Below, piece by piece: positions 1 through 4,313 of a stretch of DNA of 4,313 nucleotides. The stretch is from a virus (Duplodnaviria; Heunggongvirae; Uroviricota; Caudoviricetes). The position numbers and the translations under genes are program-made. Position 1 is the stretch's first letter. Each line of letters starts with the position of its first letter. The notes under the pieces are model-generated. The model was not told the DNA's origin. It was given only the letters and a program-made list of their open reading frames with translations, and made no database searches. Location: the IMG/VR virus record IMGVR_UViG_2671180637_000018, one strand, 5' to 3'.

Positions 1-968
1 CCCAGCGTCACGTTATTCGTGTCATACCAGCTGGAGAACTTCTCCAGAATATTAATAAGCGGATTATCCTTCTGCCCCTGCGGCGCACCGGCGATATATT
101 CAAAGGCCTTTTCGGTATCAAGGTCACTTTCAATCGTCGCTGCATACATGGCTTTCACAATGGCCGACTGAAGCTGTGTTGCCTGCAGGGAATCCAGCAT
201 CTTCAGCCGTTCCATGACGCTGTAAAACTGATTAGCCCCACGGGTCTGCCCGTCCTCCACCGGCTCGAAAATATGCAGCATGGCCGGACGCCCGGTGGGT
301 AGTTCACGCGGGATCCGTTCCCATCGTCCACTCCCGGAGAACGGAAAATCATCCTCACAGATATGGTACGCAACGGCACGGCCATATCGATCGACCTCCA
401 CCCCGGCCCGCAGAAAACGGTTCCCCATACCGTGTCCTGGCGTGTCCACCCGTTTCGGACTCACGGCTTTAAAACGCGTACGGAATAACTGCGTGGTTTC
501 CGTATCCCAGACCGGCTGCACAAAGATTTCGCCGTTAAACGCATGAACGCCCACACCTTCACGGATAAATTCCGTGAACGTGCGTTTTCCTTCCACGTCG
601 ATCTCGCCAGACATCCCTTCGGCGTATTCCGACCAGGCCGCCTCCACCTCATCGACAAAGCTTTTTGCTGCGGTCTCCCGCATCCCCAGCCAGCGCCAGT
701 TCGGACGGTAGCTGATAAGAAACATATGCCCGACAATGTGATCCTTATGCAGGGCCACCGCATTGGCCGCTATTCCGTTATTGCGCACCAGATCATCTGC
801 CCGGGCATTCCCCAGACGCAACGCGGGCAGCAGGGCCGCATCGGCACTCTGCGCCGGTGGCAACCACTCCGCCATTTGCCCGCCAAATCCTGCACCGCCC
901 CCGTTGTAGCTGAGACTCTCACGAAGCGGAACGCCGTTCACATCAATCAGGACAGGCGTTCGTTTCAT
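1..968 (-). CDS. B: portal protein (lambda gpB-like), partial: N-terminal ~322 codons, C-terminal part beyond window start
   Basis: Minus-strand frame open from ATG at 968..966 to position 1 (not in the ORF track because it runs off the edge). Manual translation MKRTPVLIDVNGVPLRESLSYNGGGAGFGGQ...NARADDLVRNNG...HIFEPVEDGQTRGANQFYSVMERLKMLDSLQATQLQSAIVKAMYAATIESDLDT matches lambda gpB blocks as recalled. GAGG Shine-Dalgarno just upstream; ATG overlaps the gpW stop (ATGA), as at the lambda W/B junction. Confidence 0.85.
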   Translation of the reverse strand, partial: MKRTPVLIDVNGVPLRESLSYNGGGAGFGGQMAEWLPPAQSADAALLPALRLGNARADDLVRNNGIAANAVALHKDHIVGHMFLISYRPNWRWLGMRETAAKSFVDEVEAAWSEYAEGMSGEIDVEGKRTFTEFIREGVGVHAFNGEIFVQPVWDTETTQLFRTRFKAVSPKRVDTPGHGMGNRFLRAGVEVDRYGRAVAYHICEDDFPFSGSGRWERIPRELPTGRPAMLHIFEPVEDGQTRGANQFYSVMERLKMLDSLQATQLQSAIVKAMYAATIESDLDTEKAFEYIAGAPQGQKDNPLINILEKFSSWYDTNNVTL

Positions 969-1171
969 AACCTCACTCCCAGCGGACGACGGCGACGCCG
1001 GGTTGTCCCCAGTACCGACTCCGCATCATTGATCGCCCGGTTAAGCTCATCCAGAGAAGCCGCCGTATATTCAATTCTGCGACCATCTTTCTGGACAGAC
1101 ACCACCCGTTTACCGGTTAATAAATCAAGGCGCGCCTGACGCAGCGCCTGCAGTTCAGCGACTGTAACCAT
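965..1171 (-). CDS. W: head completion / head-tail joining protein (lambda gpW-like)
   Basis: 68-aa [71 protein letters not shown]; same length as lambda gpW with the conserved TGKRV.VQKDGRR core. Strong GGAGGA Shine-Dalgarno 4 nt upstream of the ATG; sits between terminase and portal as in lambda. Confidence 0.85.
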   Translation of the reverse strand: MVTVAELQALRQARLDLLTGKRVVSVQKDGRRIEYTAASLDELNRAINDAESVLGTTRRRRRPLGVRL

Positions 1172-3083
1172 TCACTCCTCCGGACAGCTTCGCTGCCAGT
1201 TCTTTCAGGGTTGGCCGGGTCGTCTCTTCTTCCCGGGATTTTGCCAGTACAGCCAGATCAAGCTGCCAGCGTTGCACGGACACACGTAATGCCGCGTAGG
1301 CATACACCAGGCAGTCCAGCGCTTCGTTACGCCGCTTTTTGTTATCCCACAGCAGACGCATCTTTCCTTTTTCCCACTTCTCCACCAGCTCTTCCGCCAC
1401 CAGTTGCTGCGCCTCTGTCTGCGAAAAAATCTCCGGATCATCAGGAAAACGGATGGCATACGACGTGGCTTCATCCGCAGGCGAGGGATCGGCTTTCATA
1501 CGGGCATAGAGAATTTCTTTTGCGGTGTCCGTTCCCACTTCACACAGATACACGCCCCGCTGATTGCGGGTTTTTGGCATGGTGATCACCGGCTTGCCAT
1601 AGACAGATGCGCCTTTTACCGGCAGCACCCGGAAAACACCGTGTTTTTTTGATCTCTGATAAACAATTTCACCATCGATCCCCCCGGTGTCCCAGCAGAC
1701 ACGGGAAATAGTCATTTCGGTGCCATCCGCATGGCGGTATTTTTTGTTGATCGCCGCATCCACACGTAACAGCGTCTCTTCCTCATCAGGACGCCCCATA
1801 ATGATGATTTTATCCACCAGAAAGGCTTCCTCTCCCGGAGCCCATCCCCAGACATACATCTCAAAACGGTTTCGCTGCGAGTCAATGCCCGCCGTCAGAT
1901 AAACCACCCGGGCAGGCACCGCCGCCGTGTAACGCACCACCTTATCCATCAGTACCTGGTGATCGAGTTTTTCGCCCACGGCCTCTTCCCAGGTCTCGCC
2001 CAGCGTGGTGTTCACAAAGGTTTTCAGGCCGTTGGGATCTTTCAGTGCATCCAGCCAGTCATAGACAATCTGTACCCAGGTGGTGAACGGACTGTACGCC
2101 GTCCAGATATGGAAAGTGATGGAGCGCGGCGGCGGAATTTCATTACCCGCAGCGCTGAAAAACGTCAGGCCGTCACGGGTCCACATGCCCGTGTTTTCAC
2201 AGATCCACCGCCCGTTGTTCTGGTCCAGTTCAGACTGATGGATCACGCAGCCATGATGTTCACAGAGGTAGAAAACGCTTTCGGGACTGTCCTTCTCCCA
2301 TTTAAGCCCAAAAGGCGTGGACTCATCGCCAAATTTCAGATACTGCGCCTCCCCACAGTGCGGGCAGGGCACATAAAAACGCATGAAATGCGCCGACTCG
2401 TTGGCCGCTTTTTCGATCTGGCAGGAGCCTTTGATTTTAGGAGTCGAGCCGCGAATGGATTTGGGCCATACAGAGCCCTCAATACGTTTATCCCCCAGCA
2501 GGGTTGGCGAACCCTCTTTTTCAACATCCGGTTCGAACGAGGAAAGCTCGTCATAACAGACCACATCCACGGATTTTTCACGGTAGTTTTTTGCTGCCGC
2601 TCCCCCCAGACACCAGAAACCCACACCGGAGGAAAAACGCTTCAGGGTGAGCGTATTATCGCGGTGTTTTCTTCCGAACCATGGAGCCAGCTCCAGCAAC
2701 GCAGGAACCTCCCTTATCGTTGGCTCAACATGAGATTTCATAAAATCTTCAGCAGCTGAGTCCGTGGGCTGAAAAAGAAGGCTGTTGCGTGATTTATGCT
2801 CAATAAAATAAGCCTCCACTCCCAGCAACATCTTTGTATAACCAACACGGGCAGATTTAATCAGGTTAACAGTGCGAATCAAATCGTTGCCCATACAGTT
2901 CATGATGCCAACCTGAAACGGCAGTGTTTCCCACCGCCCCGGGGTATAAGACGACTCTTTAGGAAGGTAATAATGTTTATTGGCCCACTGAACTGTCGTC
3001 AGTGGAACAGGAATAATGAGAGATAAAAGCCCTGTTGCTATCGCACCGGCTGCATTAGCTGCCTTCTGCGCGTCTGAAATCAT
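1155..3083 (-). CDS. A: terminase large subunit (lambda gpA-like)
   Basis: 656-aa track ORF (1155..3125) collinear with lambda gpA over its full length: [103 protein letters not shown]. Start placed at the second in-frame ATG (3083..3081, MISDAQK...), which aligns with the lambda gpA N-terminus, has a GGTGGA-like SD upstream and gives the lambda-like 29-nt overlap with the Nu1 3' end; the ATG at 3125 has no SD. Confidence 0.9.
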
Positions 3084-3603
3084 CGATCCACCCGCCCACG
3101 TTTTCACCGGCCTTAGCTGAAACATTGGAGGCTTTCGCGATTTCAGTTTTCACCACATCAAGGTGTGATGGTGAAATGTCCGGATATTTACGCTGTAATG
3201 TCAACGGCACACGCACAAGTATCCCCGAAATCTCCTGTGCCACACGTTGCAGAATGAAGGTAAACAGTTCAGTTTCCAGCACTACTCCGTCTTCACGGGC
3301 ATTTTTCAGTTCCTGCGCATCTGCCTGCGCTTTTGTGAGCCGGTAGCGTTCATAGTCAATGGTGCCGGGTTGTAAATCTGACTCCGCTGCCGCACGCAAA
3401 TCGTCCAGTTCTTTGCGGAGCTTTTCGTTTTCGATATCAGTTTCCCTCTGCGCATACCACTGAATTGCCATGGCAGTATCAAATACAGATTCAATGCCCT
3501 TACTACCTTTGGAGGCGCAAGGGAGTCCCTGAGACTGCCAGCGTTCAATCGTCCGCGGGTCCACGTTGAAAATTTCGGCAAGCCTCTTTTTATTAACCTT
3601 CAT
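3055..3603 (-). CDS. Nu1: terminase small subunit (lambda gpNu1-like), DNA-recognition subunit
   Basis: 182-aa [31 protein letters not shown]...[29 protein letters not shown] matches lambda Nu1 (MEVNKKQLADIF...RTIQNWQEQGMP...[28 protein letters not shown]) as recalled. Lies immediately downstream of the cos site and overlaps the gpA start, as in lambda. Confidence 0.9.
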
Positions 3604-3630
3604 GAAAACAACCCATTATCAAATACAAGG

Positions 3631-3642
3631 CCCGACATGAAA
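3631..3642 (-). promoter_or_regulatory. R1-like Nu1 binding site (cccgacatgaaa; minus-strand core CATGTCGG)
   Basis: Forms a perfect 11-bp inverted repeat with 3670..3680 (ccgacatgaaa / tttcatgtcgg); closest repeat to the Nu1 start (about 29 bp), the position of lambda R1. Confidence 0.6.
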
Positions 3643-3669
3643 ACGCCAGAAAAAGGCATTTTCGGACAC

Positions 3670-3680
3670 TTTCATGTCGG
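3670..3680 (+). promoter_or_regulatory. R2-like Nu1 binding site, inverted relative to R1 and R3 (tttcatgtcgg)
   Basis: Inverted partner of 3632..3642; orientation opposite to the other two copies, as for lambda R2. Confidence 0.6.
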
Positions 3681-3689
3681 ACCTTTACG

Positions 3690-3726
3690 GATGCAATATT
3701 AAAAAAAACAAAAAGTTATATTCGAG
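3690..3726. promoter_or_regulatory. A/T-tract region, candidate IHF (I1-like) bending site between R2 and R3
   Basis: gatgcaatattaaaaaaaacaaaaagttatattcg; positional equivalent of lambda I1 (AACTTAATGTTTTTATTTAAAATA) and similar on the minus strand (ATATAACTTTTTGTTTTTTTTAATATTGC). No exact IHF consensus verified. Confidence 0.4.
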
Positions 3727-3731
3727 AAGTA

Positions 3732-3739
3732 CCGACACG
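3732..3739 (-). promoter_or_regulatory. R3-like Nu1 binding site (ccgacacg; minus-strand CGTGTCGG)
   Basis: Third copy of the core with one mismatch, same orientation as R1, at the position corresponding to lambda R3. Confidence 0.45.
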
Positions 3740-3779
3740 ATTTTCCCTGAAAAATTTTCATAAATAGTGAAAAACCGCG

Positions 3780-3791
3780 AGGTCGCCGCCC
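3780..3791 (-). other. cosN: 12-bp cohesive-end site (minus strand 5'-GGGCGGCGACCT-3')
   Basis: Plus strand aggtcgccgccc at 3780..3791 is the exact reverse complement of the lambda cohesive end, with lambda-like flanks on both sides. Confidence 0.85.
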
Positions 3792-3835
3792 CGTAACGGT
3801 CTGGATCACCGGAAAGGACCCGCCAACGACTTTCG
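3792..3835 (-). other. cosQ-containing segment (right-end side of cos)
   Basis: Plus strand cgtaacggtctggatcaccggaaaggacccg closely resembles the reverse complement of the lambda right end (GGGTCCTTTCCGGTGATCCGACAGGTTACG, from memory). Exact cosQ bounds not determinable here. Confidence 0.55.
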
Positions 3836-3849
3836 CGTGCAGGCATTAA

Positions 3850-4003
3850 AAATTTTGCAGTTCCATGCCTAGTTGAAACCTCGATTTCTATAACATCCAA
3901 TTTTGTAAATTTAGATATAGCTCAACTTTTCCCAATGTTTTCAAGTGTATAAAAACAATTGGCGTTACGCCATAACACTATACTTAGGATAAGTAAAGAT
4001 TTT
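3850..4003 (+). promoter_or_regulatory. AT-rich leader likely carrying the promoter/operator for the plus-strand accessory genes
   Basis: Visibly AT-rich non-coding stretch upstream of a strong RBS. Several weak sigma70-like hexamers (TTGAAA 3873..3878, TTGTAA 3903..3908, TATAAA 3948..3953, TATACT 3979..3984), none with a convincing -35/-10 pairing at 16-18 bp, so the promoter is not pinpointed. Confidence 0.25.
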
Positions 4004-4009
4004 AAGGAG
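4004..4009 (+). promoter_or_regulatory. Shine-Dalgarno (AAGGAG) for ORF 4015..4266
   Basis: aaggag followed by a 5-nt spacer and ATG at 4015. Confidence 0.55.
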
Positions 4010-4014
4010 TTTTA

Positions 4015-4266
4015 ATGAGTCAACATCAATATTATCCACAGCTGAAATGGAAGCCTGCTGAATATGAATCTCTGATGCTTTTAGATCAAACTACGCTCTC
4101 TGGTTTTACTCCGATCATTACCATTCCAGACATAGACTGGGATTATGAAAACGAATGCTACAAGAAGAGTTTGAGTTCTTACTTATCTGACTTCGGTATT
4201 AACCTTGCGGCATCCTGGAAAGCCAATCTGATCTTACCCAGCAATAGTGGACACGCGGCTAAGTGA
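4015..4266 (+). CDS. hypothetical small protein (83 aa), first gene of AT-rich accessory cassette; family not recognised
   Basis: ORF MSQHQYYPQLKWKPAEYESLMLLDQTTLSGFTPIITIPDIDWDYENECYKK... with a strong SD at optimal spacing. AT-rich codon usage unlike the phage structural genes; plus strand, opposite to the late operon. Ends at TGA 4264..4266; the next ATG (4294) is in the same frame. Confidence 0.55.
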   Translation: MSQHQYYPQLKWKPAEYESLMLLDQTTLSGFTPIITIPDIDWDYENECYKKSLSSYLSDFGINLAASWKANLILPSNSGHAAK

Positions 4267-4281
4267 GTAAACTCTCAGTCA

Positions 4282-4287
4282 GAGGTG
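4282..4287 (+). promoter_or_regulatory. Shine-Dalgarno (GAGGTG) for downstream gene
   Basis: gaggtg 6 nt upstream of ATG at 4294. Confidence 0.4.
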
Positions 4288-4293
4288 ACTCAC

Positions 4294-4313
4294 ATGACAA
4301 AAACAGTATCAAC
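4294..4313 (+). CDS. hypothetical protein, 5' end only (MTKTVS...), continues beyond window
   Basis: ATG with a good SD 27 nt after the stop of the upstream ORF, same strand and same frame; only 6 codons visible. Confidence 0.35.

Follow-up and report, generated by a model that had tools for sequence, protein, structure and literature searches.

Beyond the cohesive-end site of a lambda-like Escherichia coli prophage, GC-rich late genes give way to AT-rich DNA with two good gene starts on the opposite strand. What is this DNA, and does it open an anti-phage system that nobody has described? The window (the whole stretch analysed, 4,313 nucleotides) is the complete 4313-bp contig CYEI01000065.1 of the E. 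coli draft assembly GCA_001285545.2, and it carries the head end of the prophage on its minus strand. A sequence-only reading had seen in its right end the best candidate for an undescribed system: a cassette with two or more plus-strand genes, one for an unrecognised 83-aa protein and a second leaving the window. Our answer, to which we give a probability of roughly 85%, is that positions 3823-4313 are the start of a two-gene accessory cassette beside cosQ, with a beta gene broken by IS3, and that the pair in its intact form is related to Gop-beta-cII and PD-lambda-2 but lacks gop.

Late genes, cos and the DNA beside it

The window holds these features:

1-968, minus strand: portal (ORF/gene annotation)
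965-1171, minus strand: gpW (ORF/gene annotation)
1155-3083, minus strand: terminase large subunit, 642 aa (gene callers and RefSeq)
3055-3603, minus strand: Nu1-type terminase small subunit, which opens the late/head operon (ORF; PF07471 Phage_Nu1)
3780-3791, minus strand: 12-nt cohesive-end sequence of cosN, AGGTCGCCGCCC on the plus and GGGCGGCGACCT on the minus strand, identical to lambda
3815-3821, minus strand: cosQ-like heptamer, GGGTCCT (AGGACCC on the plus strand), identical to lambda
3823-4014, plus strand: AT-rich spacer/leader from cosQ to the beta start, GC ~0.32, with the AAGGAG ribosome-binding site (RBS) at 4004-4009; 100% identical to intact loci
4015-4228, plus strand: truncated beta family gene, codons 1-71 and the first base of codon 72 (full gene 355 aa; megablast, Pfam, PADLOC)
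4015-4266, plus strand: chimeric 83-aa ORF, 71 native beta residues, then 12 residues (LILPSNSGHAAK) and a stop codon contributed by the IS3 inverted repeat
4229-4313, plus strand: left end of IS3, with the terminal inverted repeat from TGATCTTACCC..., the RBS GAGGTG at 4282-4287 and the orfA (insE-type) start at 4294

For the terminase large subunit, the mechanical ORF spans window 1155-3125 (656 aa, start 3125); the gene callers and RefSeq place the start at 3083, which gives a 642-aa product and an overlap with the end of Nu1 that lambda has as well.

Aligned by blastn against the joined ends of lambda, window 3250-3822 runs from lambda position 544 back to 48472. There the similarity stops, one base past the cosQ heptamer, which we take to lie at lambda 48473-48479. 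Among E. coli prophages that share this Nu1-cos region, most lose similarity at 3821-3829. The GC content is 0.536 over positions 1-3603, 0.324 over 3830-4014 and 0.356 over 3850-4228; by a binomial estimate, the last stretch of 379 bp lies ~7 SD under the late genes. The sequence-only reading had seen both things correctly: similarity to lambda ends past the cosQ-like segment, and the composition shifts there from GC-rich to AT-rich (0.536 vs 0.356).

Between the beta start and cos, the minus strand contains a terminator-like hairpin (TGGCGTAACGCCA, window 3960-3972) followed by a T-rich tract. It is a candidate stop signal: in the lysogen, it could end antisense or sce7726-derived transcription before cos and Nu1 are reached. 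A promoter scan for a plus-strand sigma-70 promoter of beta returned no site above background and none that was convincing.

An IS3 copy inside a beta family gene

The first plus-strand start, the ATG at 4015, follows its AAGGAG (4004-4009) at a spacing of 5 nt. When window 3600-4313 was searched by megablast in 5426 complete E. coli genomes, 79 of them matched 3600-4228 at 99-100% and then diverged; the annotated feature beneath the match is a 'beta family protein'. Pairwise alignment with the intact locus of NZ_CP062910.1 (L001) gives the same limit: the two sequences are identical to window 4228 and unrelated beyond. The 71-residue fragment is still matched by Pfam PF14350 (7.8e-07). The 83-aa product, which had gone unrecognised, is a truncated pseudogene product comprising codons 1-71 of a 355-aa beta family gene (PF14350); it exists in RefSeq as WP_053901486.1.

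What follows is the left end of IS3, an element of the IS3 family with orfA/orfB and a programmed frameshift. We read the ends of a K-12 IS3 copy directly: it is 1258 bp long, bounded by TG...CA, starts with TGATCTTACCC..., ends with ...GGGTAGGATCA and has orfA 65 nt inside. Window 4225-4313 is identical to K-12 IS3 at 89 of 89 positions and finds matches in 4286 of the 5426 genomes. The window thereby shows what marks this element, namely a terminal inverted repeat beginning with TG, orfA ~65 nt in and reference-identical sequence. IS3 starts at 4229, after the first base of beta codon 72. The second plus-strand start, the ATG at 4294, lies 6 nt behind GAGGTG (4282-4287), and its product MTKTVS... 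is that of IS3 orfA.

The four bases to the left of the IS3 end, AATC (window 4225-4228), also flank the IS3 copy in the ren gene of K-12 DLP12 (L009 1401-1404). That two IS3 copies share this neighbour may be chance or target preference.

An intact novel cassette would account for two ATGs with good ribosome-binding sites in AT-rich, non-lambda DNA. But the 83-aa ORF joins beta residues 1-71 to 12 residues read from IS3, the second ATG belongs to an IS3 orfA with 100% identity to K-12 IS3, and the gene that really comes second in the cassette is encoded on the opposite, minus strand. The alignments to intact beta loci and to K-12 IS3 refute such a cassette, and we leave it next to no probability. 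What survives of the two plus-strand genes with strong ribosome-binding sites is the two starts themselves; they are not two genes of one cassette, one being the beta stub and the other IS3 orfA. An intact cassette has only one plus-strand gene, beta, and its other gene (sce7726/cII-like) is on the minus strand. Similarly, the oppositely oriented accessory cassette holds up as AT-rich cargo, but in the source genome its beta gene is broken.

Could the junction instead be an assembly artefact, a chimeric contig end that hides an intact beta gene? A short-read contig ending in a multicopy repeat invites the suspicion. Yet the break coincides to the base with the start of the IS3 inverted repeat, a RefSeq entry exists for the product, and the identical junction with its 83-aa product was assembled independently in three contigs, two from NCBI E. 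coli assemblies and one from an ENA metagenome, all ending in IS3 and at the same position. Because of these independent assemblies the junction is real, and an artefact is extremely improbable. The window stops in IS3 because IS copies interrupt short-read assemblies: the contig end, 85 bp into the element, is the usual break at a repeat and no biological boundary. Beyond the contig are the remainder of IS3 with its right end and the 3-bp target duplication. Exact-pattern scans found no match to the left beta/IS3 junction in genome contigs or to the predicted right-hand IS3 junction in metagenome contigs, so they did not recover the DNA past IS3 in the source genome. The missing part of beta and sce7726 would lie past the contig end, if this genome still has them.

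Directly visible in the window is a beta gene, part of an accessory cassette, that IS3 has inactivated. On the predicted model of beta, the 71-residue stub covers just the opening strand-helix units of the barrel. As 80% of the protein is gone, and with it seven of eight barrel strands, the module has most probably lost its function in the source genome.

The intact pair and its relatives

In the intact locus of NZ_CP062910.1, where the cassette and its flanks span about 980,050-982,290, the order is Nu1 (minus strand), cos, beta (plus, 355 aa), sce7726 (minus, 206 aa), a 416-bp spacer and Rz/lysozyme/holin (minus); the RefSeq annotation reads Nu1, beta family protein, sce7726 family protein and lysis protein. 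The two cassette genes are convergent and overlap by 59 bp at their 3' ends. Their GC content is 0.41-0.43, against 0.545 in the late genes and 0.50 in the lysis genes.

The cassette occurs in 127 of the 5426 complete E. coli genomes, always on the chromosome and always at 99% identity or more. A Nu1-cos region of this type is present in ~1189 of the complete genomes (at least 80% coverage). Other prophages carry different cargo at the cos site: a TonB-like gene with ISEc52 and iss/bor, a DUF6979 gene, or a Qin-type ynfO/gnsB/ynfN/cspI set. Because few Nu1-cos genomes have the cassette, others have different cargo and the GC content shifts, the evidence supports accessory cargo beside cos; presence or absence beside common core genes, together with deviant composition, is characteristic of a lambdoid cos-proximal accessory locus. 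The sequence-only reading had called the cos-proximal right end a variable cargo site and had proposed comparing related prophages for the cassette. Its view agrees with the 127 carriers among ~1189 Nu1-cos genomes and with the three other cargos, and the comparison shows the cassette to be accessory (127/5426) and replaced elsewhere by other genes.

Like lambda bor and other lambdoid cos-proximal morons, the cassette is AT-rich, independently oriented cargo between the lysis cassette and cos. Unlike bor, to which it bears no sequence relation, it is a convergent two-gene pair that abuts cosQ directly. In the intact locus, 220 bp between sce7726 and Rz (L001 11241-11460) share 86% identity with part of a P22-like rha gene and are probably a remnant of earlier cargo at the site. 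A megablast search of sequenced phages found no record that holds the cassette, the sole match being to this 220-bp P22 rha-like remnant.

Intact beta matches Pfam PF14350 from end to end (3.7e-56) and the PADLOC models PD-Lambda-2_C (3.3e-32 and 1.3e-25) and 'beta' (5.9e-10). Its partner matches NCBIfam sce7726 at 1.4e-54 (184.9 bits vs a cut-off of 70) and PADLOC 'cll' at 4e-31, and its precomputed Pfam family is PF26915 Phage_P4_cII. Beta had no model match in the NCBIfam search, and profile searches of PDB sequences returned nothing significant for either family. Profile searches of the cassette proteins, as the sequence-only reading had recommended, thus reached anti-phage models (PD-Lambda-2_C, beta and cll). 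Its term 'undescribed system' was too strong: the families are curated (PF14350, PF26915, NF033832) and the published P4 Gop-beta-cII and PD-lambda-2 systems have them as components (PMC9122126, PMC9519451). The intact cassette is also a typical member of the sce7725/sce7726 pair (NF033832; PF14350 with PF26915 Phage_P4_cII), naming families with no assigned function. Literature searches met sce7725/sce7726 in gene lists only, and those for PF14350, Beta_protein and PF26915 led only to unrelated 'beta protein' papers.

The closest comparison in layout is with satellite P4, in which gop (plus), beta (plus, 355 aa) and cII (minus) adjoin the P4 cos. The P4 gop-beta-cII system protects E. coli against lambda and P1; in P4-like satellites it occupies a hotspot next to cos (Rousset et al. 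2022, PMC9122126), and the region is non-essential in P4 (PMC9122126). What sets off its toxicity, and with it cell death, is the phage accessory gene orf184 (bioRxiv 10.1101/2023.04.06.535777). The cassette shares with this system (gop_beta_cll in PADLOC/DefenseFinder; PMC9122126) the convergent order of beta and cII, a beta of 355 aa, and a place beside the cos of a mobile element as non-essential cargo in a variable hotspot. The proteins are distant by BLASTP: 22% identity for beta (E 4e-7) and 27% for cII (E 1e-18). The cII-like protein has 206 aa in the cassette and 264 aa in P4, and the 3' ends overlap by 59 bp in the cassette, whereas in P4 they are separated by a 27-bp gap with an annotated terminator. 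The host element differs as well, a lambda-like prophage against the P4 satellite, and the beta copy in the window is destroyed by IS3.

As to components, the beta family is represented in full in intact loci and by residues 1-71 in the window; the convergent cII (sce7726/PF26915) is present in intact loci, outside the window. The third component is missing: P4 has gop, but the cassette has neither gop nor a gop-sized ORF. A tblastn search with P4 Gop found no match in L001 or related loci, and the PADLOC gop model does recognise P4 Gop. Between cos and beta there is only a 190-bp spacer, which leaves no room for gop.

PD-lambda-2 has three published components, a HigB-like A, an Xre-M78 peptidase B and a beta-family C (Vassallo et al. 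[quoted passage not shown] Component C is what the cassette has in common with it, PD-Lambda-2_C being the best PADLOC score of beta. The E. coli prophage cassette lacks both A and B: L001 9000-11500 contains no ORF for a HigB-like A or an Xre-M78 B. Conversely, the cII-like partner falls outside the published three-gene definition. On these sequence comparisons we assign the cassette to a known defence family, as a variant that lacks gop and has been inactivated in the source genome. A literature search found no published test of this two-gene, gop-less form.

We then surveyed 80 loci from species-representative genomes, collected with the sce7726 profile (L024-L103), together with four reference loci (L001, L005, L010, L015); the 80 cover Proteobacteria, Firmicutes, Bacteroidota, Acidobacteriota, CPR and others. 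Beta is adjacent to a cII-like gene in 81 loci and convergent with it every time. In 79 of these 81 the genes overlap at their 3' ends (median 50 bp); the two that do not include P4. A gene for an Xre-M78 peptidase of the PD-lambda-2B type (PADLOC ~1e-140; Pfam Peptidase_M78) precedes beta in 23 of the 81 and is itself preceded by a gene of the PD-Lambda-2_A type (~95 aa, 1e-37). These 23 loci have the PD-lambda-2 A-B-C operon and then the convergent cII-like gene (e.g. L060 4001-7129 and L099 4001-7146), and the latter may be an overlooked fourth PD-lambda-2 partner. The other 58, including L001 and all close enterobacterial relatives, have neither an A- nor a B-type gene. The gop-less pair is found in primase-type satellites too. 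In Acinetobacter prophages (L015-L018 6001-8620) it lies directly downstream of an S24 CI/LexA-type repressor gene and in the same orientation. The position after a CI-type repressor is that of lambda rexAB, typical for an exclusion gene expressed in the lysogen. We conclude that beta and the cII-like gene form a conserved core, which stands alone or with different third and fourth genes; the E. coli prophage has the bare core.

These positions also bear on the idea that the pair serves the phage life cycle, in lysogeny control (compare the historical name cII) or in DNA processing near cos, and gives the host no protection. The pair does adjoin cos both in P4 and in the lambdoid prophage, and one partner has a nuclease fold. 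However, only ~1/9 of the Nu1-cos genomes carry it, with other cargo as a substitute; elsewhere it lies far from any cos, beside a CI repressor or a primase; in P4 it belongs to a non-essential region (PMC9122126); and beta is repeatedly inactivated by IS elements, as set out below. We consider a role in the life cycle improbable, and keep to a gop-less relative of the known defence systems.

Predicted proteins and recurrent loss of beta

The AlphaFold2 model of the sce7726 partner, built with 48 homologs, is confident (pLDDT 89.2). Residues E29, D40, E52 and K54 are invariant and fit a D...E-x-K catalytic motif (RADIAV...GYELKS). The protein combines a restriction-endonuclease-like fold with an acidic/acidic/Lys motif, the signature of the PD-(D/E)XK superfamily, and the cII-like partner is accordingly predicted to be a PD-(D/E)XK nuclease with its active site intact. 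In the beta model (pLDDT 92.9), helices at the C-terminus extend a TIM barrel. It matches TIM barrels generically only, which indicates no specific substrate or ligand; 38 invariant columns in the beta alignment suggest a conserved pocket.

We somewhat favour the view that the intact cassette is an anti-phage module expressed in the lysogen, where the pair would probably act in superinfection exclusion or abortive infection. TIM-barrel beta might sense infection or activate its partner, and the cII-like protein with its PD-(D/E)XK fold might be the effector. This division into sensor/activator and effector nuclease, drawn from folds and conserved residues, is offered tentatively. One point speaks against the defence reading: the known toxin of P4 is Gop, which is absent from the cassette.

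Beta is often found broken. In complete genomes it is interrupted by IS1, by IS5 or, with truncation, by an IS2/IS66 cluster, and the 206-aa sce7726 is annotated as intact. The disruptions were recorded as follows:

L021, 3550-4247: beta disruption
L022, 1868-2848: beta disruption
L023, 1-3909: beta disruption
Protein cluster of P0155: beta disruptions

The 90% cluster of the 83-aa product comprises 44 N-terminal beta fragments with several break points; it can contain beta fragments only and is uninformative on any bias between beta and sce7726. The break points are a frameshift after S67 and junctions after N71, K79, L81 (of two kinds) and L92, the last with an IS5-like read-out, GKVRIS. In complete genomes at least four IS events fall in beta (1068 bp) and none in sce7726 (621 bp), a difference that is not significant for these gene lengths (p ~0.16 by our estimate). 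The tally does not establish a preference for beta over its neighbour. The disruptions could reflect a fitness cost or an AT-rich insertion hotspot.

They count against a toxin-antitoxin reading, in which the pair would be an addiction module that stabilises the prophage, with the cII-like nuclease as toxin, beta as antitoxin and no anti-phage role. Its appeal lies in the tight two-gene architecture on mobile elements and in the behaviour of P4 beta, which neutralises the toxic Gop according to Ghisotti 1990 as cited in PMC9122126. Loss of an antitoxin beside an intact toxin should, however, be intolerable, and beta has been broken independently in many E. coli lineages with sce7726 annotated as intact (IS1, IS5, IS2/IS66), besides the further breaks after residues 67, 71, 79, 81 and 92. 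The genes are moreover convergent and form no operon, unlike classical type II toxin-antitoxin pairs. Since beta is lost with the nuclease gene intact, the data argue against beta as a simple antitoxin of the nuclease, and we judge an addiction module unlikely.

A bolder version of the defence reading is possible, though we hold it with reserve. The bare pair would be an autonomous two-gene anti-phage system and at the same time the core common to Gop-beta-cII and PD-lambda-2. Beta would sense infection, or make or bind a small molecule, and switch on the nuclease; Gop or the HigB/Xre-peptidase genes would be optional effectors, the 3' overlap would be regulatory, and the IS knock-outs would reflect a fitness cost.

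For the window itself the result is mainly corrective: the candidate for an 'undescribed system' is a pseudogene stub and the end of an IS3 copy, and no long-standing question is altered by the finding of the cassette. Beyond the window, the cos-proximal right end of lambda resembles the cos-proximal hotspot of P4 satellites in the kind of cargo found there. The convergent beta/cII-like core occurs with Gop, with PD-lambda-2 A/B or alone, and the cII-like partner, whose role is unexamined in the published systems, is predicted to be a nuclease with an intact active site. Finally, beta can be lost from loci that keep an intact nuclease gene, and this constrains models of how such systems are restrained.
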